Shown one piece after another: positions 4,552 through 44,923 of a DNA stretch of 47,252 nucleotides. This DNA is from an uncultured Flavobacteriaceae bacterium (GTDB taxonomy: Bacteria; Bacteroidota; Bacteroidia; AKYH767-A; OLB10). The stretch's first letter is position 1; each line of letters starts with the position of its first letter. The notes under the pieces were generated by a model. The model was not told where the DNA came from. It was given only the letters and a program-made list of their open reading frames with translations, and searched no databases. The position numbers were made by a program, and so were the translations under genes. Where the stretch lies: positions 2,202-49,453 of the forward strand of contig CAYWHE010000002.1 in assembly GCA_964458125.1 (NCBI GenBank), given 5' to 3'.

Positions 4552-4575
4552 GATCAGGTTATTTTATTGTTTGTA

Positions 4576-5529
4576 TTAAAAAAAGCGGGGTGTGACAATT
4601 TTGGCTTTATTGAAACTGAGATCATATCCCAGACTGATTTCATGTGATCCTGAATTGTAATTGGAAAGCCTGGTCAGTGTGTAATCGTATGAGTATCCGA
4701 AACGCAGTTGTTTGGTGATCTGGAATTGGGTCAGGAGGGCAATGGCATCACCCGTCCTGTAGGAGGCACCAAGCCAGAACAGTTGTTTGAAAAGCACATT
4801 GAAGCTGATATCACCCTCCAGAGGTGCGCCTTGGGTAGCCTTGATCATGATGGATGGTTTGCATTTGAAGTTCGGATCAAGGGTAAAGACGTACGCCGAA
4901 TAGAAGTAATAATGCCAGTCATGGATATTGGCTTTATTGGAAACTATTTTGAGTGCATATGGATCCACTTTGTTTTCAAGGAATCTGGGTACGGAAAGCC
5001 CGGCATAGAAGCGGTCGGTATTGTAATATAACCCGAATCCGAAATTGGGCATCGTTTTGTTCAGAATGTTGTTGGAGAACTCCGGATCATTGGGATCAAT
5101 CGTGGTTACATCCAGCAGTTTTTCCCGCACATTCACAATCCCTCCCTGCAAGCCAAACGCCAGCATGCCTGTTTCGCTTGTTTTGAGGTGATAGGAATAA
5201 TTCAGGAAGGCGGTGGTGTTATTGCTGACGCCAATCCTGTCATTCATGACGCAAACACCAAGTCCCATCTGTTTATAAAAGACCGGAGTATGTGCGCTAA
5301 AGGTGGCCGTCCTGGGCGCCCCATCCATTCCTGTCCACTGATCACGGTAGAGGATACCAAAGGATGGAAATCCGCGTGTACCTGCATAGGCGGGGTTAAT
5401 AAACATCTCATTGTTCATGTACTGTGTAAACTGCGGTTCATATTGTGCGGAGGCGGTTAATGAACTTAGCAACAATACGATCAGCAGATTAAACCGGAGA
5501 TTTTGTTGAATTTGTTTTTTGCAAATCAT
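4576..5529 (-). CDS. Type IX secretion system membrane protein, PorP/SprF family
   Basis: 317 aa. A signal peptide is followed by AQYEPQFTQYMNNEMFINPAYAG, the N-terminal hallmark of PorP/SprF beta-barrels. The pattern is beta-rich and alternating, ending ...VTPRFF. It lies 80 nt downstream of a type-B-CTD cargo gene, the usual genomic context. Confidence 0.9.
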   Translation of the reverse strand: MICKKQIQQNLRFNLLIVLLLSSLTASAQYEPQFTQYMNNEMFINPAYAGTRGFPSFGILYRDQWTGMDGAPRTATFSAHTPVFYKQMGLGVCVMNDRIGVSNNTTAFLNYSYHLKTSETGMLAFGLQGGIVNVREKLLDVTTIDPNDPEFSNNILNKTMPNFGFGLYYNTDRFYAGLSVPRFLENKVDPYALKIVSNKANIHDWHYYFYSAYVFTLDPNFKCKPSIMIKATQGAPLEGDISFNVLFKQLFWLGASYRTGDAIALLTQFQITKQLRFGYSYDYTLTRLSNYNSGSHEISLGYDLSFNKAKIVTPRFF

Positions 5530-5609
5530 AACGTTATATATTTTTATAAATTAGCTTAATGTGAACTGAGTAATTGATGATATTGGGCAAATCATTTCTG
5601 ATGTAAGGT

Positions 5610-8600
5610 TTAATATCTTAAAGTTATATATCCTTGTATGGGTTTGGAGTGATTATTCAAATCCAGGATATAGAAATACGTTCCCGGCGGCACTTTTTTT
5701 CCAATGTAGATACCCGAGACATTGGAGATACCGTCCCAGTTGTTGTTGTAATCATGTGTTTTAAAGATGAGGTTACCCCACCGGTTGTAAATCCATATTT
5801 TATTGCCCGGGTAATTTTCAATGCCTGTAATGGTATAGCCATCGTTGATTCCATCGCTGTTAGGGGAAAAGCCTGTCGGAATCACCAGTGTATCGCAATC
5901 AATACCGACTTCAATGGTAGCGGTTTTCTGACAGCCGAACTCACCGGTTATGGTAACGGTGTAGACGGTGGATTGCAGTGGCGCGGCAAGTGGATTGTAA
6001 ATGTTGCTGTAGTTGAGACCCTGTTCTGGATTCCATTGGTAGGAGATACCACCGTAGACGTAAAGCTGGGCGGATTCTCCGTCCCTGGTGCAGATGATAG
6101 AATTGGGGCTGGTGGAGACCTGTCCGACCTGGTGGACGGTAACGGAGATGGGTTCGGAAACATAGCTGCCGCAGGCATTGGCCACTATAACCGTATACGA
6201 ACCGGCGGCAGGGGTTGTGAATGTAAAGGAGTTAGCACCCTGCAGGGGCTGCCCGTTGAGGTACCACTGGTAAACGACCCCCGGAATGGAATCGGCCGAG
6301 AGGGTGACCAGTTCACCGATGCACACTTCGGTAGGTCCTGTTGCTACGGCATGGAATATGGAATTATCGGCAATGGAGTAAACAGCGGTGGTGTTGCAGC
6401 CCCTGGCATCGGTGATGGTGACAGTATAGGATCCAGCCAAAAGCTGCTGGAGGTTCTGCGAGGTGGCGCCATTACTCCAGTTAAAGACATAGGGAGCAGT
6501 ACCACCGTTGACAAAGGTGGTGATGGTACCTCCGCTGCCAAAGAGGCAGTTGGCAGCCGTGGTATGAGCGGAAGCGGACAGTGGAGACAGGGGCTGTGCC
6601 ATCACCACGCTCAGAGAAGCAGTACAGCCGTTGGCATCGGTGACGGTGACGGTATAGGTACCTGCGTTGAGAGATGCGATATCCTGTGAGGTGGCTCCGT
6701 TGCTCCAGAGGTATGCATAGGGTGGCGTACCCATGGTGACGGAAAGATCGATGGCGCCGGTTGGATTATTGTAACAATCAATGAGCTGGCTGATCTGCGC
6801 CAGGGGAACAAGCGCTCCGGAAGGTTGCCCGATGGTGGCGGAAGCCAGGATTGTGCAACCGTTGGCATCGGTAAGGGTAACGGTGTATGTACCTGCCCCG
6901 GCCCCGGCGAGGTCTTCGGAGGTGTTACCGTTGCTCCAGTAGAATGAATAAGGCGGAGTACCATTGGCAGGCTGCAGGTCGATAGCCCCGGTTGGCGCAC
7001 CGAAACAAAGGACCTGTTGTGTAACAGCAATTGTTGCGGTAAGTGCGGCGGCAGGCTGGCTCACACCGGCAGAGAGGGCGAATGAACAACCTTTGCTGTC
7101 GGTTACGGTGACCGAATAGGATCCTGCGGCAAGCCCGGAGATGGTCTTGGTGGTCATGCCGTTACTCCAGAGATAATAATAGGGGTATGTTCCACCTTGT
7201 ACGGAAATATTGATGAGCCCGGTGAGTTCGCCATAGCAGGCCACATCGGTAACCGATGAAATATTGGCCACCAGGATTGTATCGGGCTGGCCGATTTTAG
7301 CCGAAGCGGTTCCTGTACAACCGTTGGCATCTGTAACAATAACAGTATAGGTACCGGAAGAGAGATTGGCGGCATCTTCATTGGTATCCCCGTTGCTCCA
7401 AAGAAAGGTATATGGGACCGTTCCACCGGCAGTGTTCAGATCAATGAGCCCATTGACTCCTCCGAAACAGTCGACATGCTGGAGCACAGTTGCGGTAGGA
7501 GCCAGCGGGGCCAGGGGCTGAGAGACCGCAATACCGGATAGGGAGGTGGAACAGCCGTTGATATCAGTGACCTGGACGGCGTAGGCACCGGAATCAAGGC
7601 CGGCCAGGGAAGCGAGTGTATCACCGGTATTCCAGAGATAGGCATAGGGTGCAGTACCGCCTGTAACCGAGAGGCTGATGGCGCCGTTGTTGCCTCCGAA
7701 ACAACTGACGGACGTGATGGCGGAAGTATTGGCATTGAGTGCAGCAGGAGGCTGGATGACGGCCAGGCCCGTAACCTGAAAGACACAACCGTTGGCATCG
7801 GTGATGGTTGCATCGTATGAACCGGCCATGAGGTTGGCGATGGATGAGGAGAGGGCCCCATTGCTCCAGAGGTAATTGTATGGAGGAGTACCGCCGTTGG
7901 TGGCCAGGGAGAGGGCCCCGTTCATACCGCCGAAACAATCAACGGGTGAGTTGGAAGAAACCGAAGCACTAAGGGCAGCGGCAGGCTGTGAGATGAGCAG
8001 AGCCGGGAGGATGGCCGAACAACCGTTGGCATCGGTAACAGTAACAGTATAAGAACCTGGCTGCAGACCGGAAACAGAAGCGGCAGCCTGACCGTTATTC
8101 CACAGGAAGGTATAGGGTGCGGTACCACCGGATGCGGCAACGGCAAGGACACCGTTACCGGCGCCAAAACAATCCACGTTTGTTGTTGAAGCCAGGGAGG
8201 GGTTCAGGGGAGCGGCAGGCTGGGTGACCATGGCGGCTGCGGTGTTGATACAACCGTTGGCATCGGTGATGGTGGTGGAATAGATACCGGAAGGGAGGTT
8301 GGAGAGGTTTTGTGAAGTGGCCCCGTTGCTCCAGAGGTAGGCGTATGGTGGAGTTCCGCCGGCAGGGGAAAGAGCAATGGCCCCGGAATGGTTACCGTAG
8401 CAGTCGACCTGGAGGGTGACGGCGATGGAGCTGCTCAGTGCACCCGGAGGCTGGGAAACGTTGGCGGAAGCATGAAACAGGCATCCGTTGGCATCGGTGA
8501 CCGTGACGAAATAGGAACCGGAATACAGGCCGGAAATATTCTGAGTGGAGGCGGCATTGCTCCACAGGAAGGCATAGGGAGGGGAACCACCGTTGACAGA

Positions 8601-11600
8601 GAGGGAGACGGTTCCGTTACCACCGGAATTACAGGAGACGTTTTGTGTGGTGATGGCGCTGCCGGCAAGAGGAGCTGCCGGCTGACTGACCAGGATGGCG
8701 GCCAGGGTGTTGGAACATCCGTTGTCATCGGTAACGGTAACGGCATACGAACCGGCGGTTAGGCCTGTGATGTTTTGGAGGGAGGATCCGTTACTCCAGA
8801 AGAAGGAATAAGGAGGAGTGCCCCCGGAAGAGGAGAGGGAGATGCTTCCGGAAGCAGCGCCATAACAATCCACGTTGGAAGAGGAAGCGACGGCACTGGC
8901 AAGGGCGGCGGGAGGCTGGCTGATGTTCAGGCCCGCCAGGGAGGTATTGCAGCCGTTGGCATCGGTGATGGAAACGGAGTAAGAACCAGCGGGAACGGAA
9001 GAGAGGTTTTGGGACTGGCTGCCGTTGCTCCAGTTAAAAGCATAAGGAGCGGTACCGCCGGCAACGTTGAGGGAAAGGGCTCCTGAATTGTTGCCGAAAC
9101 AGTCCACGGGAGTGTTACCGGCCAGTGCGGCCTGGAGGGCAGCCGGGGGCTGTGCAATGGAGATGGCGGCAATGGAGGTGATACAGCCGTGATCATCGGT
9201 GATGGTGACGTTGTAGGAACCGGAAGGGATGGCGGAGAGGTTTTGGGAAGAGGCCCCGTTGCTCCAGGCGAATGCATAAGGGGATGTGCCGCCGGCAACG
9301 GAGAGGGAGATGTTTCCGGTGTTGTTTCCAAAGCAGGCCACCGGGGTGCTGGAGGTGACGGCAGCGCTCAGGGCGGCAGCAGGCTGTTCAATGGTGATGG
9401 CGGGCAGGGAAGTGGAACATCCATTGGCATCGGTGATGGCAACGGAGTAAGAACCAGCGGGCAGGGAAGCGATGTTTTGGGACTGTGCCCCGTTGCTCCA
9501 GTTGAAGGTGTAGGGAGCGGTTCCACCGGCAACGGAGAGGTTCAGGGAGCCGTTGTTACCGCCGAAGCAGGCGACATCCGAGGAGGCGGAGACCTGGGCG
9601 ACCAGTGCAGCGGGAGGCTGTGCGATGACCAGGCCGGTCTGGACAGTAGAACAGCCATTGTCATCGGTAACGGTCACCGTATATGAACCGGCGGGAATAG
9701 CGGAGTTGTTCTGGGAAGAACTGCCGTTGCTCCAGTTAAAAGTATAAGGAGCGGTACCTCCGGCCACGTTGAGGAAGATGGATCCGTTGCTGCCGCCGAA
9801 GCAGGAAACATCAGCGGAAGCGGCAAGGGAAGAGGAGAGGGCAAGGGGCGGCTGAGGCACGCTGATGGCGTTAACCTGTCCGGAACAGCCGTTGGCATCG
9901 GTGACGGTTACCGAGTACTGACCGGCCTGGACAGCGGAAAGGTTTTGAGAGGAGGCCCCGTTGCTCCAGTGAAAGGAATAGGAAGCCGTACCACCGTTGA
10001 CGGAGAGGTTGACGGCTCCGTTGTTTCCCCCGAAACAGGAGACCGGGGAGATGGAAGAGGCGGAAATTGTCAGGGGGTTAACCGGCTGAGAAACCAGGAG
10101 GTTGTTCAGGGAGGTGAAGCAACCGTTGGCGTCGGAAACTAAAACCGAATAGGTCCCTGCCGATAACTGGGAGGCAGCGGAGGAAGAAGATCCGTTGTTC
10201 CACAGATAGGAATAGGGCGGGGTACCGCCGGCAGCCAGGACCGTGAGAGCTCCGTTGTTGCCACCGAAGCAATCTACCTGAGCGGCAGCGGAAATGGAAG
10301 CGCTCAATGGTTCAGGGGGCCCAGCAATGGAAATGGCGGATTGAGAAACGGAGCATCCGTTGGCATCGGTAACAGAAACCGTATACGAACCTGCAGGGAG
10401 AGCGAACTGATCTTCAGTAGAGGCTCCGTTGCTCCAGTTGAAAGCATAGGGAGGGGTGCCACCGCTGACGGTTAAGTCGACCGAACCGTTGCTGCCTCCA
10501 AAACAGGCAACGGCGGACTGGGCCGTAATACCAACAGACAGGGTAGCGGCAGGCTGAGCGATAACGGCGGAAGAGACATTGATGCAGCCGTTGTTATCAA
10601 TAACGATAACGGAATAAGTGCCGGCCTGGAGACCGGCGATGTCTTCGGTGGTTTCGCCGTTGCTCCACTGGAAGGAATAGGGAGGGGTGCCGCCGGTAGC
10701 GGAAAGGTTGATCGATCCGTTCTGACCACCAAAGCAGAGCACCTGCTGACTGACGTTAATGGAGGAGTTGAGGGATCCCGGAGGTTGGGAAATGGAGGTC
10801 GAAGAATTGGAGACACAACCGTTGGCATCGGTAATGGTGACGACATAGTTACCGGCATAAAGGCCGGCAATATTCTGTGTGGAGGCTCCGTTGCTCCAGA
10901 GAAAGGAATAGGGAGCCGTTCCGCCGTTGACGGCCAGTTGGATGGCTCCATTGGCGCCGGAGTTACAGGAGACATTGGAAGTGGTGGTAGCGGAAGCGGA
11001 GATTGGAGCGGCCGGTTGGGTAACCTGGATGGCGGCAGCAGTGAAGATACAACCGTTATCATCGGTTACGGTGACGGTATAGGAACCGGCCGGTATATTG
11101 TTCAGATCCTGGGACTGATGGCCATTGCTCCAGAGGTAGGTATAACCGGGGGTGCCTCCCGAGACCTGCAAATCGATGGATCCGGAGGCGTTTCCATGGC
11201 AGGCGACATTGGAAGTGGAGGAAGCGGAAGCCTGTACAGGGTTGAGAGGCTGGGAAATGAGGATGGAAGAGATGTCATCCACACAACCGTTCAGATCGGT
11301 AATGGTGACGGAATAGTTCCCGGTAGAGAGACCGGAAATGGCCTCGGTGGTGGCGCCATTGTTCCACAGGAAGGAGTAAGGAGCGGTACCGCCGGCGACA
11401 GTAATTTGAAGCGCACCATTGCTGCCGCCGTTGCAGGAGACGTTGGAGATGGAAGAAACGGATGCAGCCAGAGCCGCGGGAGGTTCATCAATAAGAATGG
11501 CCTGAATGGCGGCCAGGCAGCCGTTGAAGTCGGTAACGGTTACTGAATATGAACCTGCAGGCAGGGAAGTTATGTTTTGGGAGGAGGCTCCGTTGCTCCA

Positions 11601-13964
11601 CAGGAAGGAATAGGGTGCCGTACCGCCTGAAACGGAAAGGCTTACCGAACCGTTGCTAAAACCAAAACAGCCGGCGTGATTCACGGAAACAACCGCGGGA
11701 TTGAGTGGGGCTGCAGGCTGAGCGATGACGATGGCGGGCAGGGAGGTGGTGCAGCCGTTGGCATCGGAAATGGAAACGGTATAGGAACCGGAAGAAAGAT
11801 TGCTGATGTTTTGCGACACCTCACCTGAATTCCAGGCAAAGGAATAGGGGGATGTTCCGCCGGAGACCAATAAGGTGATGCTTCCGTTGTTCCCGCCGTA
11901 GCAGGATGCGGGGGATGCGGAAACGGTGGAGGCGTTCAGAGGAGCCAAAGGCTGCGAAACGGAAATGGAACTGTTCAGGGTGGTGCAACCGTTTGCATCG
12001 GTAACGGTTACTGTATATGAACCAGCGGTGATGCCGGAAATATTCTGTGTGGAAGCCCCGTTGCTCCAGATAAAGGCATACGGCGGCGTACCGCCGGACA
12101 CATTCAGGTTGATCCAGGCATTGCTGCCGTTGTTGCAGGAAACCTGTGCCAGTCCGGCAACCGATGTGTTCAGGGCAGTAGCCGGTTGTGCAAGGGCAAT
12201 AGCGGAAGAGACCGCGGAGCATCCCAGGGCATCGGTGACGGTAGCGGTATAAACTCCTGCGCTCAGGGAGGAGATTTGTGATGTGGTGGCCCCGTTGTTC
12301 CAGAGATAGGTATAGCCGGCGGTTCCGCCGCTGACATTCAGGCTGATGGAACCATTGCTGCCGCCGTTACAGGATACCGCGGTGAGTGATCCCGTGGACA
12401 CCGACAGGGGAGCGGCAGGCTGGCTGATCACCAGGTTTTCCAGCGATATGGAACAGCCATGGGCATCGGTAACCACCACCGAGTAAGAACCGCTGCTCAA
12501 CTGGCTGATGGTTGATGTCGTTCCGCCGTTACTCCAGTTGTACGTATATGGAGCGGTTCCCCCGCTGACCAGCAGGCTCATGGATCCGTTGTTGCCATTA
12601 AAGCAGTTATTATGGGTTGTTGATGAAATGGAGGCCTGAATGACATTCACATTTGCAATGACTACAGACCGGGTTGCCGAACAGGATGCCTGATCCGTAA
12701 CGGTAACCGTATAGATACCCGATGATAAGCCTGAGATGTCTTCGGTACTCTGGCCGGAACTCCAGTTATATGCAAAAGGTGAATAGCCGCCGTTGACAGT
12801 CAGATTTATCGAGCCCTGTGATGTATTGCAGGAATAGTCAGTATGGGTTTCCAGCAGTGTAGCTGAATTTACAGTAACGTTTTTTGTACATGTTCCCGAG
12901 TAGTTAGCTGAAGTCATGGTGATATTGATCGTATAGAATCCATTGGTATTTCCGTTGTTAACCGTAACGGATGCGCCTGTGTTGGAACCCGATATATATG
13001 CTCCGGAAGTATTATTCAGCAATGTCCACGTATAGGTATAGCCGATAAATGGTGAAATACTGAAGGTTGAAAGATCATCCTTACAAACATTGGTTGTACC
13101 GGAGATATCACACGGAGGTACGGAAATTACTGCTGCTGCTGAAAGTGACCGGTCCTGGTTTCCTCCCGCACCGTCAACAGAGTGAAGGCTCATGTGATAA
13201 GGTGAACCACTGATGCCTGAAGCGGAATTGTTAGGGCACCAGTCTGCAGCGCAGGCAATATGTCCACCCCATGCAAAAACGACAGTTGAATTGGTTGTAG
13301 TAAATGTGATTCTCATAATTGATTCGGAGGAAGAAACATTTAAGTCACCATAGTTGCCATTACTGTTCAGTACATATTGCATGTTGGTTATTGCTGTACC
13401 GTTATACATGGTCATCACCCTTTCACCTGCCGGCAAGGCATTGAAGGTTGTTATGGGTTGTGGCAGGTTGGTACAGGCAACTGTTTTATTCACAACCGGG
13501 GCAGGAATGGGATAACTTACAGGCGACGGATTAATTCCGCTGAGTCCGGATAAGGGATTAATTGCCTCAGCCGGATGTGAGAACTGTGCGTGAGGATCCA
13601 ATCGTTGAAAATGGGTGATAAAATCAATGGCATTTACACTGCTGTGTGTGATATCCCATCCTATTTCGATATAATGTGTCCCCGGAGTCAGGCCGGTTAC
13701 AACACACCGGTATGGAACCGACATGCTTTCCGTATAATGCGAATTGGATGATCCCGCATTTCCGTTTACCCAATTAACGGGAGAAATCGGAGAGGCAAAA
13801 GATCCATTTCTAGCCTGGTCGATATTGCCAGATTGTGCCAATGAAATTGAAGGAAGTAAGATCAGTAATAGCGTCTTTAGAAAATTTCCATGCTTTGATG
13901 CTGGAGAGTCAATCCCTGAATGGTCTGATCGGACAAACCTGTTGGGCCAATATCTTGTTTTCAT
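5610..13964 (-). CDS. Giant SprB-repeat adhesin (2,784 aa) with T9SS type-B sorting domain
   Basis: Single 8.36-kb ORF starting at ATG 13964. A hydrophobic leader (LLLILLPSISLAQ) precedes a ~330-aa unique N-terminal region. Then come 28 tandem ~76-aa SprB-type repeats (C[FY]G..NG.I.L.V.GGT.PY.F.WSNG...QN...L.AG.Y.VTVTD.NGC), Ig-like segments, and a C-terminal type-B CTD (LVIPTGFSPNSDGINDGY...IYNRWGNLIF...WDG...GTYFY). Confidence 0.9.
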   Translation of the reverse strand: MKTRYWPNRFVRSDHSGIDSPASKHGNFLKTLLLILLPSISLAQSGNIDQARNGSFASPISPVNWVNGNAGSSNSHYTESMSVPYRCVVTGLTPGTHYIEIGWDITHSSVNAIDFITHFQRLDPHAQFSHPAEAINPLSGLSGINPSPVSYPIPAPVVNKTVACTNLPQPITTFNALPAGERVMTMYNGTAITNMQYVLNSNGNYGDLNVSSSESIMRITFTTTNSTVVFAWGGHIACAADWCPNNSASGISGSPYHMSLHSVDGAGGNQDRSLSAAAVISVPPCDISGTTNVCKDDLSTFSISPFIGYTYTWTLLNNTSGAYISGSNTGASVTVNNGNTNGFYTINITMTSANYSGTCTKNVTVNSATLLETHTDYSCNTSQGSINLTVNGGYSPFAYNWSSGQSTEDISGLSSGIYTVTVTDQASCSATRSVVIANVNVIQASISSTTHNNCFNGNNGSMSLLVSGGTAPYTYNWSNGGTTSTISQLSSGSYSVVVTDAHGCSISLENLVISQPAAPLSVSTGSLTAVSCNGGSNGSISLNVSGGTAGYTYLWNNGATTSQISSLSAGVYTATVTDALGCSAVSSAIALAQPATALNTSVAGLAQVSCNNGSNAWINLNVSGGTPPYAFIWSNGASTQNISGITAGSYTVTVTDANGCTTLNSSISVSQPLAPLNASTVSASPASCYGGNNGSITLLVSGGTSPYSFAWNSGEVSQNISNLSSGSYTVSISDANGCTTSLPAIVIAQPAAPLNPAVVSVNHAGCFGFSNGSVSLSVSGGTAPYSFLWSNGASSQNITSLPAGSYSVTVTDFNGCLAAIQAILIDEPPAALAASVSSISNVSCNGGSNGALQITVAGGTAPYSFLWNNGATTEAISGLSTGNYSVTITDLNGCVDDISSILISQPLNPVQASASSTSNVACHGNASGSIDLQVSGGTPGYTYLWSNGHQSQDLNNIPAGSYTVTVTDDNGCIFTAAAIQVTQPAAPISASATTTSNVSCNSGANGAIQLAVNGGTAPYSFLWSNGASTQNIAGLYAGNYVVTITDANGCVSNSSTSISQPPGSLNSSINVSQQVLCFGGQNGSINLSATGGTPPYSFQWSNGETTEDIAGLQAGTYSVIVIDNNGCINVSSAVIAQPAATLSVGITAQSAVACFGGSNGSVDLTVSGGTPPYAFNWSNGASTEDQFALPAGSYTVSVTDANGCSVSQSAISIAGPPEPLSASISAAAQVDCFGGNNGALTVLAAGGTPPYSYLWNNGSSSSAASQLSAGTYSVLVSDANGCFTSLNNLLVSQPVNPLTISASSISPVSCFGGNNGAVNLSVNGGTASYSFHWSNGASSQNLSAVQAGQYSVTVTDANGCSGQVNAISVPQPPLALSSSLAASADVSCFGGSNGSIFLNVAGGTAPYTFNWSNGSSSQNNSAIPAGSYTVTVTDDNGCSTVQTGLVIAQPPAALVAQVSASSDVACFGGNNGSLNLSVAGGTAPYTFNWSNGAQSQNIASLPAGSYSVAITDANGCSTSLPAITIEQPAAALSAAVTSSTPVACFGNNTGNISLSVAGGTSPYAFAWSNGASSQNLSAIPSGSYNVTITDDHGCITSIAAISIAQPPAALQAALAGNTPVDCFGNNSGALSLNVAGGTAPYAFNWSNGSQSQNLSSVPAGSYSVSITDANGCNTSLAGLNISQPPAALASAVASSSNVDCYGAASGSISLSSSGGTPPYSFFWSNGSSLQNITGLTAGSYAVTVTDDNGCSNTLAAILVSQPAAPLAGSAITTQNVSCNSGGNGTVSLSVNGGSPPYAFLWSNAASTQNISGLYSGSYFVTVTDANGCLFHASANVSQPPGALSSSIAVTLQVDCYGNHSGAIALSPAGGTPPYAYLWSNGATSQNLSNLPSGIYSTTITDANGCINTAAAMVTQPAAPLNPSLASTTNVDCFGAGNGVLAVAASGGTAPYTFLWNNGQAAASVSGLQPGSYTVTVTDANGCSAILPALLISQPAAALSASVSSNSPVDCFGGMNGALSLATNGGTPPYNYLWSNGALSSSIANLMAGSYDATITDANGCVFQVTGLAVIQPPAALNANTSAITSVSCFGGNNGAISLSVTGGTAPYAYLWNTGDTLASLAGLDSGAYAVQVTDINGCSTSLSGIAVSQPLAPLAPTATVLQHVDCFGGVNGLIDLNTAGGTVPYTFLWSNGDTNEDAANLSSGTYTVIVTDANGCTGTASAKIGQPDTILVANISSVTDVACYGELTGLINISVQGGTYPYYYLWSNGMTTKTISGLAAGSYSVTVTDSKGCSFALSAGVSQPAAALTATIAVTQQVLCFGAPTGAIDLQPANGTPPYSFYWSNGNTSEDLAGAGAGTYTVTLTDANGCTILASATIGQPSGALVPLAQISQLIDCYNNPTGAIDLSVTMGTPPYAYLWSNGATSQDIASLNAGTYTVTVTDANGCTASLSVVMAQPLSPLSASAHTTAANCLFGSGGTITTFVNGGTAPYVFNWSNGATSQNLQQLLAGSYTVTITDARGCNTTAVYSIADNSIFHAVATGPTEVCIGELVTLSADSIPGVVYQWYLNGQPLQGANSFTFTTPAAGSYTVIVANACGSYVSEPISVTVHQVGQVSTSPNSIICTRDGESAQLYVYGGISYQWNPEQGLNYSNIYNPLAAPLQSTVYTVTITGEFGCQKTATIEVGIDCDTLVIPTGFSPNSDGINDGYTITGIENYPGNKIWIYNRWGNLIFKTHDYNNNWDGISNVSGIYIGKKVPPGTYFYILDLNNHSKPIQGYITLRY
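5670..12597 (-). repeat. Copy A of a 6,928-bp perfect direct repeat (partner 14102-21029)
   Basis: Base-for-base identity to the partner at a constant offset of 8,432 wherever I compared lines. All antisense ORFs in the track recur with the same offset and identical translations. The first mismatches are at 5669/14101 and 12598/21030. Confidence 0.95.
6390..12850 (-). repeat. Tandem array of 28 SprB-type coding repeats (~228-231 bp each) in the 2,784-aa gene; boundaries approximate
   Basis: I counted 28 occurrences of the PY.[FY].W[SN].G core in the translation. The TDANGC-encoding string ccgttggcatcggt recurs once per unit on the plus strand. Confidence 0.8.
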
Positions 13965-14041
13965 TATCTTATTGCAGTTTGTTGATGTTTGGTTTTATAA
14001 GTTGCGGAATTAATAGGTATATATTTGAATTTAGTTATTTC

Positions 14042-17000
14042 CTAATACCTTAATGTAATATATCCCTGTACCGGTTTTGAATCGTTATTCAGGTCCAGGA
14101 CATAGAAATACGTTCCCGGCGGCACTTTTTTTCCAATGTAGATACCCGAGACATTGGAGATACCGTCCCAGTTGTTGTTGTAATCATGTGTTTTAAAGAT
14201 GAGGTTACCCCACCGGTTGTAAATCCATATTTTATTGCCCGGGTAATTTTCAATGCCTGTAATGGTATAGCCATCGTTGATTCCATCGCTGTTAGGGGAA
14301 AAGCCTGTCGGAATCACCAGTGTATCGCAATCAATACCGACTTCAATGGTAGCGGTTTTCTGACAGCCGAACTCACCGGTTATGGTAACGGTGTAGACGG
14401 TGGATTGCAGTGGCGCGGCAAGTGGATTGTAAATGTTGCTGTAGTTGAGACCCTGTTCTGGATTCCATTGGTAGGAGATACCACCGTAGACGTAAAGCTG
14501 GGCGGATTCTCCGTCCCTGGTGCAGATGATAGAATTGGGGCTGGTGGAGACCTGTCCGACCTGGTGGACGGTAACGGAGATGGGTTCGGAAACATAGCTG
14601 CCGCAGGCATTGGCCACTATAACCGTATACGAACCGGCGGCAGGGGTTGTGAATGTAAAGGAGTTAGCACCCTGCAGGGGCTGCCCGTTGAGGTACCACT
14701 GGTAAACGACCCCCGGAATGGAATCGGCCGAGAGGGTGACCAGTTCACCGATGCACACTTCGGTAGGTCCTGTTGCTACGGCATGGAATATGGAATTATC
14801 GGCAATGGAGTAAACAGCGGTGGTGTTGCAGCCCCTGGCATCGGTGATGGTGACAGTATAGGATCCAGCCAAAAGCTGCTGGAGGTTCTGCGAGGTGGCG
14901 CCATTACTCCAGTTAAAGACATAGGGAGCAGTACCACCGTTGACAAAGGTGGTGATGGTACCTCCGCTGCCAAAGAGGCAGTTGGCAGCCGTGGTATGAG
15001 CGGAAGCGGACAGTGGAGACAGGGGCTGTGCCATCACCACGCTCAGAGAAGCAGTACAGCCGTTGGCATCGGTGACGGTGACGGTATAGGTACCTGCGTT
15101 GAGAGATGCGATATCCTGTGAGGTGGCTCCGTTGCTCCAGAGGTATGCATAGGGTGGCGTACCCATGGTGACGGAAAGATCGATGGCGCCGGTTGGATTA
15201 TTGTAACAATCAATGAGCTGGCTGATCTGCGCCAGGGGAACAAGCGCTCCGGAAGGTTGCCCGATGGTGGCGGAAGCCAGGATTGTGCAACCGTTGGCAT
15301 CGGTAAGGGTAACGGTGTATGTACCTGCCCCGGCCCCGGCGAGGTCTTCGGAGGTGTTACCGTTGCTCCAGTAGAATGAATAAGGCGGAGTACCATTGGC
15401 AGGCTGCAGGTCGATAGCCCCGGTTGGCGCACCGAAACAAAGGACCTGTTGTGTAACAGCAATTGTTGCGGTAAGTGCGGCGGCAGGCTGGCTCACACCG
15501 GCAGAGAGGGCGAATGAACAACCTTTGCTGTCGGTTACGGTGACCGAATAGGATCCTGCGGCAAGCCCGGAGATGGTCTTGGTGGTCATGCCGTTACTCC
15601 AGAGATAATAATAGGGGTATGTTCCACCTTGTACGGAAATATTGATGAGCCCGGTGAGTTCGCCATAGCAGGCCACATCGGTAACCGATGAAATATTGGC
15701 CACCAGGATTGTATCGGGCTGGCCGATTTTAGCCGAAGCGGTTCCTGTACAACCGTTGGCATCTGTAACAATAACAGTATAGGTACCGGAAGAGAGATTG
15801 GCGGCATCTTCATTGGTATCCCCGTTGCTCCAAAGAAAGGTATATGGGACCGTTCCACCGGCAGTGTTCAGATCAATGAGCCCATTGACTCCTCCGAAAC
15901 AGTCGACATGCTGGAGCACAGTTGCGGTAGGAGCCAGCGGGGCCAGGGGCTGAGAGACCGCAATACCGGATAGGGAGGTGGAACAGCCGTTGATATCAGT
16001 GACCTGGACGGCGTAGGCACCGGAATCAAGGCCGGCCAGGGAAGCGAGTGTATCACCGGTATTCCAGAGATAGGCATAGGGTGCAGTACCGCCTGTAACC
16101 GAGAGGCTGATGGCGCCGTTGTTGCCTCCGAAACAACTGACGGACGTGATGGCGGAAGTATTGGCATTGAGTGCAGCAGGAGGCTGGATGACGGCCAGGC
16201 CCGTAACCTGAAAGACACAACCGTTGGCATCGGTGATGGTTGCATCGTATGAACCGGCCATGAGGTTGGCGATGGATGAGGAGAGGGCCCCATTGCTCCA
16301 GAGGTAATTGTATGGAGGAGTACCGCCGTTGGTGGCCAGGGAGAGGGCCCCGTTCATACCGCCGAAACAATCAACGGGTGAGTTGGAAGAAACCGAAGCA
16401 CTAAGGGCAGCGGCAGGCTGTGAGATGAGCAGAGCCGGGAGGATGGCCGAACAACCGTTGGCATCGGTAACAGTAACAGTATAAGAACCTGGCTGCAGAC
16501 CGGAAACAGAAGCGGCAGCCTGACCGTTATTCCACAGGAAGGTATAGGGTGCGGTACCACCGGATGCGGCAACGGCAAGGACACCGTTACCGGCGCCAAA
16601 ACAATCCACGTTTGTTGTTGAAGCCAGGGAGGGGTTCAGGGGAGCGGCAGGCTGGGTGACCATGGCGGCTGCGGTGTTGATACAACCGTTGGCATCGGTG
16701 ATGGTGGTGGAATAGATACCGGAAGGGAGGTTGGAGAGGTTTTGTGAAGTGGCCCCGTTGCTCCAGAGGTAGGCGTATGGTGGAGTTCCGCCGGCAGGGG
16801 AAAGAGCAATGGCCCCGGAATGGTTACCGTAGCAGTCGACCTGGAGGGTGACGGCGATGGAGCTGCTCAGTGCACCCGGAGGCTGGGAAACGTTGGCGGA
16901 AGCATGAAACAGGCATCCGTTGGCATCGGTGACCGTGACGAAATAGGAACCGGAATACAGGCCGGAAATATTCTGAGTGGAGGCGGCATTGCTCCACAGG

Positions 17001-20000
17001 AAGGCATAGGGAGGGGAACCACCGTTGACAGAGAGGGAGACGGTTCCGTTACCACCGGAATTACAGGAGACGTTTTGTGTGGTGATGGCGCTGCCGGCAA
17101 GAGGAGCTGCCGGCTGACTGACCAGGATGGCGGCCAGGGTGTTGGAACATCCGTTGTCATCGGTAACGGTAACGGCATACGAACCGGCGGTTAGGCCTGT
17201 GATGTTTTGGAGGGAGGATCCGTTACTCCAGAAGAAGGAATAAGGAGGAGTGCCCCCGGAAGAGGAGAGGGAGATGCTTCCGGAAGCAGCGCCATAACAA
17301 TCCACGTTGGAAGAGGAAGCGACGGCACTGGCAAGGGCGGCGGGAGGCTGGCTGATGTTCAGGCCCGCCAGGGAGGTATTGCAGCCGTTGGCATCGGTGA
17401 TGGAAACGGAGTAAGAACCAGCGGGAACGGAAGAGAGGTTTTGGGACTGGCTGCCGTTGCTCCAGTTAAAAGCATAAGGAGCGGTACCGCCGGCAACGTT
17501 GAGGGAAAGGGCTCCTGAATTGTTGCCGAAACAGTCCACGGGAGTGTTACCGGCCAGTGCGGCCTGGAGGGCAGCCGGGGGCTGTGCAATGGAGATGGCG
17601 GCAATGGAGGTGATACAGCCGTGATCATCGGTGATGGTGACGTTGTAGGAACCGGAAGGGATGGCGGAGAGGTTTTGGGAAGAGGCCCCGTTGCTCCAGG
17701 CGAATGCATAAGGGGATGTGCCGCCGGCAACGGAGAGGGAGATGTTTCCGGTGTTGTTTCCAAAGCAGGCCACCGGGGTGCTGGAGGTGACGGCAGCGCT
17801 CAGGGCGGCAGCAGGCTGTTCAATGGTGATGGCGGGCAGGGAAGTGGAACATCCATTGGCATCGGTGATGGCAACGGAGTAAGAACCAGCGGGCAGGGAA
17901 GCGATGTTTTGGGACTGTGCCCCGTTGCTCCAGTTGAAGGTGTAGGGAGCGGTTCCACCGGCAACGGAGAGGTTCAGGGAGCCGTTGTTACCGCCGAAGC
18001 AGGCGACATCCGAGGAGGCGGAGACCTGGGCGACCAGTGCAGCGGGAGGCTGTGCGATGACCAGGCCGGTCTGGACAGTAGAACAGCCATTGTCATCGGT
18101 AACGGTCACCGTATATGAACCGGCGGGAATAGCGGAGTTGTTCTGGGAAGAACTGCCGTTGCTCCAGTTAAAAGTATAAGGAGCGGTACCTCCGGCCACG
18201 TTGAGGAAGATGGATCCGTTGCTGCCGCCGAAGCAGGAAACATCAGCGGAAGCGGCAAGGGAAGAGGAGAGGGCAAGGGGCGGCTGAGGCACGCTGATGG
18301 CGTTAACCTGTCCGGAACAGCCGTTGGCATCGGTGACGGTTACCGAGTACTGACCGGCCTGGACAGCGGAAAGGTTTTGAGAGGAGGCCCCGTTGCTCCA
18401 GTGAAAGGAATAGGAAGCCGTACCACCGTTGACGGAGAGGTTGACGGCTCCGTTGTTTCCCCCGAAACAGGAGACCGGGGAGATGGAAGAGGCGGAAATT
18501 GTCAGGGGGTTAACCGGCTGAGAAACCAGGAGGTTGTTCAGGGAGGTGAAGCAACCGTTGGCGTCGGAAACTAAAACCGAATAGGTCCCTGCCGATAACT
18601 GGGAGGCAGCGGAGGAAGAAGATCCGTTGTTCCACAGATAGGAATAGGGCGGGGTACCGCCGGCAGCCAGGACCGTGAGAGCTCCGTTGTTGCCACCGAA
18701 GCAATCTACCTGAGCGGCAGCGGAAATGGAAGCGCTCAATGGTTCAGGGGGCCCAGCAATGGAAATGGCGGATTGAGAAACGGAGCATCCGTTGGCATCG
18801 GTAACAGAAACCGTATACGAACCTGCAGGGAGAGCGAACTGATCTTCAGTAGAGGCTCCGTTGCTCCAGTTGAAAGCATAGGGAGGGGTGCCACCGCTGA
18901 CGGTTAAGTCGACCGAACCGTTGCTGCCTCCAAAACAGGCAACGGCGGACTGGGCCGTAATACCAACAGACAGGGTAGCGGCAGGCTGAGCGATAACGGC
19001 GGAAGAGACATTGATGCAGCCGTTGTTATCAATAACGATAACGGAATAAGTGCCGGCCTGGAGACCGGCGATGTCTTCGGTGGTTTCGCCGTTGCTCCAC
19101 TGGAAGGAATAGGGAGGGGTGCCGCCGGTAGCGGAAAGGTTGATCGATCCGTTCTGACCACCAAAGCAGAGCACCTGCTGACTGACGTTAATGGAGGAGT
19201 TGAGGGATCCCGGAGGTTGGGAAATGGAGGTCGAAGAATTGGAGACACAACCGTTGGCATCGGTAATGGTGACGACATAGTTACCGGCATAAAGGCCGGC
19301 AATATTCTGTGTGGAGGCTCCGTTGCTCCAGAGAAAGGAATAGGGAGCCGTTCCGCCGTTGACGGCCAGTTGGATGGCTCCATTGGCGCCGGAGTTACAG
19401 GAGACATTGGAAGTGGTGGTAGCGGAAGCGGAGATTGGAGCGGCCGGTTGGGTAACCTGGATGGCGGCAGCAGTGAAGATACAACCGTTATCATCGGTTA
19501 CGGTGACGGTATAGGAACCGGCCGGTATATTGTTCAGATCCTGGGACTGATGGCCATTGCTCCAGAGGTAGGTATAACCGGGGGTGCCTCCCGAGACCTG
19601 CAAATCGATGGATCCGGAGGCGTTTCCATGGCAGGCGACATTGGAAGTGGAGGAAGCGGAAGCCTGTACAGGGTTGAGAGGCTGGGAAATGAGGATGGAA
19701 GAGATGTCATCCACACAACCGTTCAGATCGGTAATGGTGACGGAATAGTTCCCGGTAGAGAGACCGGAAATGGCCTCGGTGGTGGCGCCATTGTTCCACA
19801 GGAAGGAGTAAGGAGCGGTACCGCCGGCGACAGTAATTTGAAGCGCACCATTGCTGCCGCCGTTGCAGGAGACGTTGGAGATGGAAGAAACGGATGCAGC
19901 CAGAGCCGCGGGAGGTTCATCAATAAGAATGGCCTGAATGGCGGCCAGGCAGCCGTTGAAGTCGGTAACGGTTACTGAATATGAACCTGCAGGCAGGGAA

Positions 20001-23000
20001 GTTATGTTTTGGGAGGAGGCTCCGTTGCTCCACAGGAAGGAATAGGGTGCCGTACCGCCTGAAACGGAAAGGCTTACCGAACCGTTGCTAAAACCAAAAC
20101 AGCCGGCGTGATTCACGGAAACAACCGCGGGATTGAGTGGGGCTGCAGGCTGAGCGATGACGATGGCGGGCAGGGAGGTGGTGCAGCCGTTGGCATCGGA
20201 AATGGAAACGGTATAGGAACCGGAAGAAAGATTGCTGATGTTTTGCGACACCTCACCTGAATTCCAGGCAAAGGAATAGGGGGATGTTCCGCCGGAGACC
20301 AATAAGGTGATGCTTCCGTTGTTCCCGCCGTAGCAGGATGCGGGGGATGCGGAAACGGTGGAGGCGTTCAGAGGAGCCAAAGGCTGCGAAACGGAAATGG
20401 AACTGTTCAGGGTGGTGCAACCGTTTGCATCGGTAACGGTTACTGTATATGAACCAGCGGTGATGCCGGAAATATTCTGTGTGGAAGCCCCGTTGCTCCA
20501 GATAAAGGCATACGGCGGCGTACCGCCGGACACATTCAGGTTGATCCAGGCATTGCTGCCGTTGTTGCAGGAAACCTGTGCCAGTCCGGCAACCGATGTG
20601 TTCAGGGCAGTAGCCGGTTGTGCAAGGGCAATAGCGGAAGAGACCGCGGAGCATCCCAGGGCATCGGTGACGGTAGCGGTATAAACTCCTGCGCTCAGGG
20701 AGGAGATTTGTGATGTGGTGGCCCCGTTGTTCCAGAGATAGGTATAGCCGGCGGTTCCGCCGCTGACATTCAGGCTGATGGAACCATTGCTGCCGCCGTT
20801 ACAGGATACCGCGGTGAGTGATCCCGTGGACACCGACAGGGGAGCGGCAGGCTGGCTGATCACCAGGTTTTCCAGCGATATGGAACAGCCATGGGCATCG
20901 GTAACCACCACCGAGTAAGAACCGCTGCTCAACTGGCTGATGGTTGATGTCGTTCCGCCGTTACTCCAGTTGTACGTATATGGAGCGGTTCCCCCGCTGA
21001 CCAGCAGGCTCATGGATCCGTTGTTGCCACTGTAACAGGATACAGCAGTGGTATTGGAAAGGACTGCATTCAGCGCAGCGGGTGGTTGTGTTACCGAAAT
21101 ACCTGCCTGGCCGGTTGTACATCCGTGGCTATCGGTAACGGTAACCGTATATGATCCTGCTGGCAGTGAAGCGGGATCTTCAGCCTGTGATCCGGTGTTC
21201 CACAGGTAGGTATAGGGTGAAGTTCCGCCGGAGACCGTCAAATCTACTGCACCATTTCCACCCCCGAAGCATGACACTTCTGTGACGGCGGTAATTCCTG
21301 CTGTAAGCGGGCCTGAAGGCTCCATGATCACTCCTGTCGAAACATTGATGCAGCCATTCTGATCCGTTACGGTAACCGTATAACTCCCGGCTGCCAGGTT
21401 GCTGATATCTTCGGATGAGGCGCCATTGCTCCACTGGTAATTATATGGCGGTGTTCCGCCCGTGCTGTTCAGATTTATCGAACCGTTACCGCCGGCATAG
21501 CAAAGCACCTGCTGGGTGACGGTTATGGAGCTGTTTAACGATCCGGCCGGCTGGCTGATCGTAGCGGAAGCTGTTGAGGAACAACCTTTGGAGTCGGTAA
21601 TGGTCACCACGTAGGTTCCGGCATATAAACCGGATACATTCTGGTTTCCGGATCCGTTGCTCCAGAGATAGGAATATCCTGGTGTTCCTCCGGTTACCTG
21701 AAGGTTGATCGAACCGTTTGCACCTGAATTGCAGGATACATTGGAAGCGGTTGTGGCGGTTCCGGTAACAGGCTGCGCCGGTTGTGAAACTACCAGTGAA
21801 GCTGCGATGGTCGTGCAACCGTGTCCATCGGTAACCGTGACAGCATAGGAACCGGCCGGAATGTTGTTCAGGTCCTGGGAAATGGCCCCATTGCTCCACT
21901 GGTAGACGTAGGGAGTCGTTCCCCCGTTGACCGACAGGTTAATGGAACCTGACGTATTTCCGAAACATGCTACCGGATTGATGCTGACGGCTGAAACGGT
22001 CAGGCTGGCGGATGGCTGGGAGATGGAAATCCCGTTTACGGTTTTTGAACATCCCTGTGAATCCGTAACTGTTACCGAATAATTGCCTGCTGCCAGGTTG
22101 CTGATGTCCTGCGTGCTGTTTCCATTGCTCCAGTTAAACTGATAAGGTGCAGTGCCGCCTGAAACGTTAAGGGTTATAGCTCCGTTGCTGCCACCGGTAC
22201 AAGTCACATCGGTATTCGAGGAAACAAAGGCAGCGACTGATGCGGCAGGCTGGCTGATACTGATGGCGCTTAATTGCAGCGTACATCCATTATTATCTGT
22301 AACCGACACGGTATAAATTCCCGCCTGTAAGCCGGAGATATTCTGTGAAATGGCCCCGTTGCTCCATTGCCAGGAATAGGGCGCTGTTCCGCCGGCTGCC
22401 ACGGTGCTGATGGCACCGTTCGAACCGTTAAAACAGGATACGTCTGCAGTGGATGATGCGGATCCTGACAGTGCTGATGCCGGCTGGGAAAGGGTTGCCG
22501 ATGTGGTTGCCGTACATCCCAGGGCGCTGGTAACGGTAACCGTATAGGTACCGGAGGCTGCATTGGAAATATTCTGCAGCGTGGCACCATTGCTCCAGTT
22601 GAATGAATAGGGACTGTTGCTGTTTGAAACCGTCAGGCTGATTGTTCCGGTGGTTTGGCCGAAACAATTTATATCGGACTGAGCCGTCGTTACCTGGGGC
22701 TTTTTCCTGAGTGTCAGCACCATCGTGTCTTTCGGTGTAGAACATCCATACCGGGGCGCCAGGAAGAGTGAAACAGATCCCGCATTGATATCGGCGGCCG
22801 AGGGAAAATATTTTACACTGTAACTGCTGTCATCCGGATAAAAAACTCCTGAACCGGAACTCGTCCATTGTTTGGAGCCCGAATATGCGGCAGACGAGAA
22901 GGCAATTGAACCGTTCAGGGTAACGGAATCGGATCCGGAAACGGTAACACAAACCGATTGATCGGCACCGGCGTTGGTAACCAGGTAATCAGGGACGGAA

Positions 23001-24988: not shown

Positions 24989-25735
24989 ATGATCCATTGC
25001 ATCATTATTGACGATGAAAAAATGTGCATCAGTACGCTGGAACTGACGCTGCAGGTTCATTGTCCGGACGTTATCATTGATGCTACCTGTTCCAGCGCGG
25101 AGGAGGGTATGAAAGCCATTGAAAGGTTCCGTCCTGAAGTGGTTTTCCTGGATATAGAAATGCCCCGTATGAACGGCTTTGATATGCTGGAAAGAATAAG
25201 CCCTGTTAATTTTCATATCGTTTTTACCACCGCCTACAACCAGTTTGCCATTAAAGCTTTCCGGTACAGCGCGCTCAATTACCTGCTAAAGCCCATAGAT
25301 CCCGATGAGCTCAGGGAGACGGTACATCGCATCCTGCAGGTCCGAAGGGCTCCTTCGAAAGAACAGTTTGAACTGCTGCTTGAATCCATCCGGCACAGCG
25401 AACCCCGGACACAGCGAATTGCCTTGTCTACCGGTGACGGCTTGTTGTTTGTACAGACTTCCGATATCCTTTATTGCCAGTCTGAAAGTAATTACACCTA
25501 CGTTTACCTGGTCAATGGCGACAGACACCTTCTGGCCAGGCCCCTCAAGGAATTTGAGGACACTTTGTCCGGTGACCGGTTTTACAGGATACACAATTCC
25601 TACCTCGTGAATCTGGATCAGATTAAAAAATTTGTTCGTGGTGACGGGGGATACGTCATCATGAATGACGGTACCCAGATCACGATCGCCAGGGCCAGGA
25701 GGGAAGAGTTTTTTAACCTGTTTGATAAATTTTAG
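24989..25735 (+). CDS. Two-component response regulator, LytR/AlgR (LytTR DNA-binding) family
   Basis: 248 aa. The receiver domain is recognisable (IIIDDE...VVFLDIEMPRMNGFDML...LLKP), as is the C-terminal LytTR domain (ILYCQSESNYTYVYL...FYRIHNSYLVNLD). No histidine-kinase gene lies on either side. Confidence 0.9.
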   Translation: MIHCIIIDDEKMCISTLELTLQVHCPDVIIDATCSSAEEGMKAIERFRPEVVFLDIEMPRMNGFDMLERISPVNFHIVFTTAYNQFAIKAFRYSALNYLLKPIDPDELRETVHRILQVRRAPSKEQFELLLESIRHSEPRTQRIALSTGDGLLFVQTSDILYCQSESNYTYVYLVNGDRHLLARPLKEFEDTLSGDRFYRIHNSYLVNLDQIKKFVRGDGGYVIMNDGTQITIARARREEFFNLFDKF

Positions 25736-44533: not shown

Positions 44534-44923
44534 GAAACGCAAACCGTCCTGTCGCTTTCCGGGTTAAACCGGGGGGAGGAAAGTCCGGGCAACAAAGGGC
44601 GCCACACTTCCTAACGGGAAGGTCAACGGGTAACCGGTGAACAGACAGTGCCACAGAAAATAACCGTCCCGCTTCCGGCGGGATAAGGGTGAAAACGTGA
44701 GGTAAGAGCTCACGGGTGTTTGCAGTGATGCAGGCACCGGGTAAACCTTGTGGGTTGAAAGACCAAATATATCCGGTTCCGGGGACGGCCCGTTCCCGTC
44801 CAGGCAGTAATGCCTGGCAACCGGAAGGGTAGGTTGATAGAGGTGAACGGCAACGTTCATCCCAGATAAATGACAGGATGCTGCTTAGGCAGTAACAGAA
44901 CCCGGCTTACAGGTTTGCGTTTT
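44534..44923 (+). ncRNA. rnpB: RNase P RNA, bacterial type A
   Basis: The P4 strands are both present: GAGGAAAGTCCGGGC (5' strand) and ACAGAACCCGGCTTA (3' strand). P1 pairs AAACGCAAACC (44535-44545) with GGTTTGCGTTT (44912-44922). P2 pairs CCTGTC with GACAGG. A T-run follows. The ends are accurate to a few nt. Confidence 0.9.

Follow-up and report, generated by a model that had tools for sequence, protein, structure and literature searches.

Two giant adhesin genes lie in tandem in a stretch of 47,252 nt from an uncultured Flavobacteriaceae bacterium (contig CAYWHE010000002.1, positions 2,202 to 49,453; hereafter the window, numbered from its first letter), and they have in common a segment of 6,928 nt without a single difference. 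The upstream gene, g2, and the downstream gene, g1, are predicted to encode SprB-like surface proteins exported by a type IX secretion system (T9SS), with N-terminal heads that differ completely and with the same stalk, secretion signal and anchor. With moderate confidence, we attribute this arrangement to a recent ectopic recombination, either a gene conversion or a double unequal crossover, that put one stalk on two different heads.

Both genes are intact open reading frames (ORFs) without frameshifts on the minus strand, the strand that also carries all of their parts described below. The g2 gene (14042..24403) encodes 3,453 amino acids (aa) and g1 (5610..13964) encodes 2,784 aa, with a spacer of 77 bp between them (13965..14041). 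The g1 protein consists, in order, of a head (head1, aa 1-375, positions 12840-13964), a single divergent SprB unit (u1, 12606-12839), 27 regular units of 77-78 aa, and about 240 aa that comprise an Ig-like region and the C-terminal domain (CTD), with the CHU_C domain at about 5619-5882. The unique 5′ part of this gene (12598..13964) includes head1, u1 and the first 8 nt of a chimeric unit. The g2 protein starts with a different head (head2, aa 1-579, 22667..24403), followed by seven SprB units exclusive to this gene (U1-U7, aa 580-1122, 21038..22666) and by the same 27 common units, designated with the letter B. The units were delimited by a custom repeat hidden Markov model (HMM) built from the sequence, which counts 28 in g1 (1 unique and 27 common) and 34 in g2 (7 unique and 27 common), while the Pfam SprB model (PF13573) recognizes 26 stretches in g1 and 33 in g2 (E=3e-288 and E=0, respectively). 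The extreme C-termini of both proteins match PF13585 (CHU_C) with 91 bits (cutoff 27) and TIGR04131 with 57-58 bits (58 in g2; cutoff 35), and hydrophobic stretches are visible at both N-termini. The two CTDs are identical but for three conservative residues among the last 19. Judged by these domains, g1 and g2 are SprB-like T9SS adhesins with a type-B CTD.

Direct string comparison, in a window that contains no N, established that positions 5670-12597 (the g1 copy of the block) and 14102-21029 (the g2 copy) match over 6,928 nt with no mismatch and no gap, at an offset of 8,432. A self-BLASTN of the window, proposed as a check in the initial annotation, returned a single alignment of 6,987 nt between these copies (5611-12597 versus 14043-21029), whose 13 mismatches are all confined to the last 59 nt. 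The block holds 2,309 complete identical codons and encodes, according to the repeat HMM, the 27 common SprB units, the Ig-like region and the CHU_C/type-B CTD except for its last 19 codons. The initial annotation had reported this exact repeat and its coding content, together with antisense ORFs that recur at the same offset; all of it was reproduced, the antisense ORFs as three pairs (9189/17621, 10472/18904 and 10785/19217). No other 30-mer repeat was found in the window, with the exception of a 55-nt match at its left end. Since the SprB units within each gene show only around 63-67% mutual DNA identity, the perfect identity of the block lies outside any general homogenization of the repeats. 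The sequence comparison thus indicates one long tract, and neither chance nor ordinary repeat similarity.

The sequences that flank the block contrast with it. At the 3′ edge, the last 19 codons and stop of g1 (tail1, 5610..5669, ending in TAA) and those of g2 (tail2, 14042..14101, ending in TAG) are homologous and differ at 14 of 60 nt, through nine purely synonymous codon changes, three replacements (I/V, H/D by two nucleotide changes, and I/V) and the different stop codon. Ten of 12.7 synonymous sites differ, so that the proportion of synonymous differences (pS) reaches 0.79, which is saturation, with a dN of 0.07. At third positions the identity of the tails with each other is 0.5, which does not exceed that of either tail with the orthologous genes of other genera (0.35-0.5), and no homology between the copies was detected beyond the stop codons. 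At the rate of the tails, the probability of finding no differences at the approximately 1,800 synonymous sites of the block would be about 10^-1219. Taking the assembly at face value, 0 differences in 6,928 nt limit the true divergence of the copies to less than ~0.04% per site (95% bound).

At the 5′ edge (12598/21030) identity collapses inside the conserved start of an SprB unit, reading CFN|GNNGS in g1 and CYS|GNNGS in g2. The block starts with the third base of the N/S codon, the third codon of the unit, within the conserved C-x-x-G-x-N-G motif. Outside this edge only the generic similarity of SprB repeats is left: u1 of g1 is just 36-46% identical in amino acids to any g2 unit, and none of the flanks of the g2 units resembles that of g1 where the block begins (at most 52% over 54 nt). 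An origin of g1 as a g2-like array with deleted units is not supported by this comparison. At both junctions the frame stays intact, and motif and domain remain in homologous register. The pattern of a mosaic, an identical tract beside a diverged homologous flank, is complete at the 3′ edge, and at the 5′ edge the outer flank shows generic repeat similarity only.

The claims made from the letters alone can be read against these data. The composition of the 3′ flank and the position of the 5′ edge agree in every detail with what had been described, and so does the argument that neither a single old nor a single recent duplication fits, given that the tails are saturated and the contexts differ on both sides. 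The interpretation of the edges as those of a conversion tract holds at the 3′ edge; the 5′ edge is an out-of-register junction in a motif, with no orthologous homology outside. A plain head-to-tail duplication is excluded since 6,928 of the 8,432 bp of the offset unit recur, leaving 1,504 bp unrepeated, and all four flanks of the copies differ.

The two heads belong to different families. No similarity was found by BLASTP between head1 (375 residues) and head2 (579 residues), and neither has a match in Pfam or NCBIfam. The head1 domain, an N-terminal beta-sandwich of some 280 aa, has invariant G, N, H, W and D positions (alignment A1) and was modelled by AlphaFold2 with a mean predicted local distance difference test (pLDDT) of 91.4. 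Its family comprises 561 matches from Bacteroidota, Acidobacteriota, KSB1, Chloroflexota and others, fused to SprB, PKD, DUF11, HYR or Ig stalks, and it looks like an undescribed family of adhesin tips. Head2 is larger (around 570 aa) and contains multiple beta-sandwich domains (pLDDT 86.7; alignment A2). The 44 matches of its family carry type-A or type-B CTDs, in two contexts: short proteins of about 620 aa with only the head and a type-A CTD, and giant proteins with SprB or PKD stalks and type-B CTDs. The AlphaFold2 models of both heads gave no meaningful fold match in the PDB (template modelling score of 0.23 or below). By their sequences, head1 and head2 represent separate, widespread and unannotated domain families.

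The search for the same locus in related organisms yielded only partial counterparts. A genome scan for an orthologous locus recovered only L004 (64%) and L005 (55%), and a metagenome scan recovered L008 (70%) and 79 more distant loci. The nearest head1-type genes are those of L008 (~67-70% head identity) and L004 (~64-67%); in both loci the gene is single, encodes 3,158-3,160 aa and is followed by the start of a sprF gene, and the upstream genes are unrelated. The nearest head2-type genes, L006 and L007 (~61%), are also single genes, found at other loci. No head2-type gene was found upstream of the head1-type gene at L004, L005, L008 or the other metagenome loci. Furthermore, no repeat between genes that reached both 300 bp and 90% identity was detected in the loci of the relatives, including 80 metagenome loci, an absence that says little on how common the phenomenon is, as most of these contigs are short-read assemblies. 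A search with the C-terminal non-repeat region gave short fragments of up to 67% identity whose heads are not known, the C-termini of the head2-type relatives fall outside the loci compared, and a comparison of the tails with outgroups was uninformative on the direction of copying. The heads are unrelated and from different families, and the relatives carry each type singly; g1 and g2 are thus not simple in-place paralogues. The reading of the initial annotation, a recent tract laid over an older pair of paralogues, is retained as to a recent tract on a much older divergence, and refined as to the pair.

SprB arrays themselves seem to be stable. The adhesins of L004 (8306-17788) and L008 (9875-19351) come from different metagenome sources and show 84.7% identity in a gap-free alignment of 3,158 aa and 33 repeat units, the stalk being conserved as much as the head. 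Unit number is kept in spite of the high repetitiveness, which suggests that such arrays normally do not change. As a separate observation, the giant adhesin ORFs of several relatives known from metagenome-assembled genomes are split by stops or frameshifts (L003, 714-3239; L006, 10001-21713; L007, 10001-21125); one head gene, for instance, stops after 358 aa, and the SprB repeats start again 237 bp later. These could be consensus errors of long reads or real pseudogenization.

The stalk preserves traces of an older history. In g2, an internal duplication at an offset of 10 units (~2,334 bp) makes U2-B15 paralogous to B12-B25, with amino acid identities of 0.46-0.70 along the diagonal (at least 0.54 in 12 of the 14 pairs), the background being 0.48 +/- 0.05; accordingly, U4-U7 are old paralogues of the common units B14-B17. 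This diagonal runs across the edge of the identical block, which argues that the unique and the common units of g2 formed one array long ago. The best matches of U3-U7 are units 4-8 of L008, in order, a run of five that did not occur in 5,000 permutations (0/5,000), and the overall correlation of unit order between g2 and L008 is also significant (rho 0.47, permutation P 0.008). The stalk of a head2-type relative, L006, shows no collinearity with that of g2, except that U1 has its best match in the first unit of L006. The collinearity of the g2 stalk with head1-type stalks argues that g2 itself is a chimera, a head2 placed on a stalk of the head1 lineage, and stalk exchange has probably occurred more than once. 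At the level of units, g2 seems to retain the fuller, ancestral-looking array and g1 begins at B8, a difference that does not fix the direction of copying.

Base composition separates the parts of the genes. The GC content at fourfold degenerate sites (GC4) is 0.375 in head1, 0.59 in head2, 0.525 in U1-U7 and 0.631 in the block, the latter two differing significantly (Fisher P=4e-4). Outside head1, both genes and their neighbours have GC4 values of 0.53-0.65. At third codon positions (GC3), head1 (0.40) is a marked outlier in synonymous composition against the mean of the window genes (0.568 +/- 0.055), and the head1-type genes of the relatives are low throughout (0.30-0.39); other surface-protein genes of the window have lowish values (0.45-0.53). 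On this composition, a lineage of lower GC content may have been the source of a graft that comprised the head1 module alone or all of the 1.5-kb joint at 12598-14101. GC-biased conversion was considered as a source of these differences and set aside, since the block GC3 (0.625) is inside the normal range of the window genes, the block GC4 is near that of head2, and the actual outlier is head1.

The events that we favour can be outlined as follows. The g2 and g1 genes would be adjacent, co-oriented and probably co-transcribed SprB-repeat adhesin genes, whose products the T9SS would export through the type-B CTD and PorP/SprF and PorE-like proteins would hold on the cell surface. A segment of 6,928 bp (27 units, the Ig-like region and the CTD minus 19 residues) would have been copied recently from one gene to the other by gene conversion or, equivalently, by two unequal crossovers. 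The 5′ junction would have been resolved out of register in C-x-x-G-x-N-G, the SprB-repeat motif that is best conserved at the nucleotide level, which would account for the 28 units of g1 and the 34 of g2, and the 3′ junction would have formed inside the CTD, 57 nt ahead of the stop codon. The outcome would be two adhesins with different heads and the same stalk, secretion signal and anchor. The block sits in two gene contexts, with frame and homologous register kept at both ends, which argues for homology-guided ectopic recombination. The mechanism, its recency, the co-transcription and the common use of SprF and PorE are what we infer from these patterns. The direction of copying is ambiguous: the g2 array looks fuller and ancestral and the head of g1 looks foreign in composition. 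The 6.9-kb direct repeats would presumably make the locus prone to RecA-mediated loss or amplification of the 8,432-bp unit, whose loss would leave a g2-like gene with tail1 and without head1.

Several observations weigh against this explanation. The genome and metagenome scans recovered no sister genome in which this two-gene locus is present, so that there is no unconverted comparator. Little homology is present outside the edges: the tail reaches 77%, the 5′ edge offers no more than the generic similarity of repeats, and flanks of this kind are a weak substrate for RecA-type recombination. A similar limit set by weak homology is echoed in work on mycobacterial paralogues (PMC12046097). The synonymous contrast between head1 and the block would be explained by the import of DNA no less well than by conversion between neighbours of long residence, and the perfect identity could derive in part from graph-based assembly or polishing.

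A graft by horizontal transfer, unlikely in our judgement and still to be taken seriously, is the main alternative to recombination between the two genes. The 1.5-kb piece 12598-14101, made up of the end of an adhesin gene, the spacer, head1 and a first repeat, would have been imported from a lineage that already carried tandem adhesins, and its ends would have recombined with the CTD and with a repeat start of a single resident gene on two sister chromosomes, by an ends-in or join-point-inheritance route. The resident stalk would be duplicated in the process, the copies being identical from the event onward. That an inherited join point can regenerate a duplication is well established in bacteria, as in the transductional duplications of Salmonella. 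The low GC4 and GC3 of head1 and of its relatives' genes, the abruptness of both edges with no specific homology outside the 5′ one, and the full array of g2 beside a g1 that starts at B8 are all accommodated by such an import. However, the sprF gene found 3′ of g1 is the conserved partner of the relatives' head1-type genes and the common stalk is collinear with head1-type stalks, which suggests that a head1-type gene is old at this locus. Moreover, the searches revealed no sequence that resembles a donor (identity to the best head1 match is 70%), a test of composition is not feasible on tails of this length, and a lowish GC3 is also found in other surface-protein genes of the window. Long-term concerted evolution appears rather improbable: an old pair would be kept identical in its interior by recurrent conversion, perhaps advantageous since a single SprF/PorE anchor and a single stalk length have to suit both proteins, with the present identity as the latest round, while the short unconvertible ends drifted to saturation. 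Saturated tails beside zero divergence, the single sprF/porE-like pair for both genes and at least one earlier stalk exchange (the collinearity of U3-U7 with head1-type stalks and the match of U1 to a head2-type relative) speak for it, and GC-biased conversion could yield the higher GC4 of the block over the unique repeats of g2. Nevertheless, there is no gradient of divergence near the edges, this composition signal is weak and post hoc in view of the ordinary GC3 of the block and the similar GC4 of head2, and the relatives have single genes, with no related genome carrying the pair to show repeated homogenization.

An effect of assembly or consensus is, in our estimation, highly improbable as the whole explanation. 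Two nearly identical copies could have been made exact by the walk through a collapsed edge or by polishing with multi-mapped reads, or, in an extreme form, the second copy or the copy number could be wrong, or the alleles of two strains could have been stitched together in a metagenome. The order head2, block, joint, block, tail1 may be read as a single path through a collapsed-repeat loop, and an absence of mismatches in 6.9 kb is also expected from a collapse. The public data offer little additional coverage: exact look-up of the g1, g2 and LytTR regulator proteins of the window in public assemblies found none, and only the SprF protein was found, on a Logan contig of 1.2 kb, suggesting a low-coverage or metagenomic source. 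The predicted edge-bounded Logan fragments (the 2,309-aa block, residues 1-465 of g1 and residues 1-1134 of g2) are not on record, and an exact 40-mer from the block end had no match in the metagenomes of the Joint Genome Institute (JGI). However, the Logan contig (L001, from SRR14932609, k=31) is 100% identical to 4487-5699 and ends k-1 = 30 nt inside the block; the accession of this run was found in no paper. Such an end is expected at a real de Bruijn branch at 5669|5670, from which the reads would continue to both tail1 and tail2. The 12598-14101 joint connects the block end to the block start in frame at both ends, which requires at least two copies of the block in at least one genome. 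The giant ORFs are intact, and a few true single-nucleotide differences would leave the biological conclusion unchanged. Regarding the assembler alternative raised in the initial annotation, the apparent branch in the reads speaks in part against it; if the assembly was resolved from a short-read graph or polished with multi-mapped reads, exact identity could exist partly by construction and the copy number could exceed two. It is safe to state that the copies are at least ~99% identical and that the edges are real. Finally, a simple recent tandem duplication of the 8.4-kb unit or a programmed variation by an invertase or shufflon-type cassette switch is scarcely credible. The constant offset and the common orientation of the copies would suit them, and adhesin loci are common targets of phase variation, but only 6,928 of 8,432 bp are repeated between flanks that differ on both sides, and no site-specific recombinase gene among the window ORFs, no silent cassettes near the locus and no convincing inverted repeats were found. 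An invertible element was rejected on the same grounds, the inverted repeats near the promoter and spacer regions being only short and weak.

Recombination between the two genes remains the explanation that we favour, and the genes downstream fit a common export of both products. A PorP/SprF-family gene (sprF, 4576..5529, minus strand) lies 80 bp downstream of g1 and is well supported by PF11751 (E=1.8e-86) and TIGR03519 (288 bits, cutoff 90.55). This gene is presumed, from its position and family, to encode the cognate secretion and anchor partner of the common type-B CTD. It is followed by a PorE-like or CHU_0125-like gene of the OmpA family (2353..4551, minus strand), in which all four domain types of the PorE architecture were found (TPR; a beta-propeller, detected as PD40; CarboxypepD_reg; and OmpA_C), with scores of 364 bits for NF053607 (cutoff 620) and 308 bits for NF052230 (cutoff 600), both under the curated cutoffs. 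Thus, one sprF/porE-like pair is located downstream of both adhesin genes. No terminator-like sites were found on the coding strand between g2, g1 and sprF, and no Bacteroidota -7 motif was found on the minus strand of the g2/g1 spacer, which shows no conservation with the relatives. A g2-g1-sprF operon is plausible from this arrangement; the scans for promoters, terminators and -7 motifs were uninformative on a separate transcription of g1.

The rest of the window is ordinary chromosome, including a cbb3 oxidase cluster and the bacterial class A RNase P RNA (44536-44925, plus strand; Rfam RF00010, 262.6 bits), the latter confirming the chromosomal context. A LytTR-type response regulator (24989-25735, plus strand) is divergent from g2 across an AT-rich spacer of 585 bp and might regulate the adhesin operon; no adjacent histidine kinase gene was found in the window. 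The product of 26179-28635 (plus strand) combines a Peptidase_S74 domain, an intramolecular chaperone of the endosialidase and tail-fibre type, with a subsequent T9SS type-A sorting domain, and appears from these domains to be a phage-tail-fibre-like module on a secreted bacterial protein. The 55-nt match mentioned above is an exact direct repeat (1-55 and 676-730) that touches the left end of the window and may extend beyond it. Its copies are 225 aa (675 nt) apart, inside another gene with a type-B CTD, which has an open frame at bases 3-2123 and is composed of repeat modules of ~75 aa. It could represent a second recombination tract, in a neighbouring adhesin gene.

Among the closest known counterparts of these genes is the SprB/SprF system of Flavobacterium johnsoniae (PMC9143113), with which they share the SprB repeats, the type-B CHU_C/TIGR04131 CTD, the giant size and a gene of the porP/sprF family directly downstream. 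Proteins with type-B CTDs are secreted and held by cognate PorP-like proteins, and it has been postulated that a neighbouring porE-like gene marks non-mobile, wall-anchored type-B cargo (PMC9143113). In contrast with F. johnsoniae SprB, two adhesins here precede a single sprF and then a porE-like gene, the heads are unlike anything annotated, and no sprC or sprD was seen. Identical adhesin sequences among T9SS cargo genes of Bacteroidota also occur in hagA, rgpA and kgp of Porphyromonas gingivalis, whose identical adhesin repeats were attributed to recombination and defeat automated assembly (PMC5266723). However, those genes are dispersed and have type-A CTDs, protease or haemagglutinin domains and shorter repeat units; here, a single 6.9-kb tract is common to two type-B genes that are neighbours and differ in their N-terminal heads.

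Mosaic genes with tracts that match a closely linked paralogue exactly have also been described in other bacteria, such as the outer-membrane genes omp2a and omp2b of Brucella, subject to gene conversion (PMC7050475), and the PE/PPE pairs of Mycobacterium tuberculosis, which include a 7.3-kb duplication born of recombination (PMC12046097). In these pairs the identity reaches up to 100% depending on the lineage, and long repeats are hidden from short reads. Those genes are homologous over their full length and unconverted comparator strains exist, whereas g1 and g2 have only stalk and anchor in common, one junction is out of register in a repeat array, and no comparator genome was found. A looser resemblance exists with HMW1/HMW2 of Haemophilus influenzae, babA/babB of Helicobacter pylori and the Rhs and contact-dependent inhibition (CDI) toxins, in which a common scaffold and export signal are near-identical by recombination and the functional end differs. 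These systems differ in secretion (two-partner, autotransporter-like, type VI or CDI) and in the position of the variable part, so that the likeness is one of resemblance only. A literature search found no paper that links SprB-type genes to gene conversion in this sense; one co-mention (PMC5714932) was not weighed. Recombination among linked surface-protein paralogues is already a known process, and the present case is an unusually clean example of it that involves no new mechanism.

A broader and quite improbable possibility, for which the present evidence holds no direct support, is that the locus is a standing system of a shared stalk and exchangeable heads, with repeated movement of modules and a RecA-driven switch of the head1 unit. 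If true, it would account for the collinearity of the g2 stalk with the head1-type stalks found in other genera. Identity of the modules would be maintained to display the two heads at one height through one SprF/PorE anchor, and the 6.9-kb repeats would pop out or amplify the 8.4-kb head1 unit in subpopulations. This would amount to a recombinational variation of the adhesin repertoire in environmental Bacteroidota, possibly with a footprint of GC-biased conversion.

The locus provides a very clean multi-kilobase recombination tract in a bacterium, with 0 of 6,928 nt differing beside synonymous saturation. For genomics, loci of this type lack stability, come out wrongly assembled or fragmented from short reads, and can bias dN/dS estimates or phylogenies. 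For the biology of the T9SS, the arrangement suggests that one PorP/SprF-PorE pair can serve two cargoes, and that SprB-type adhesins evolve with their heads and stalks as separable modules.

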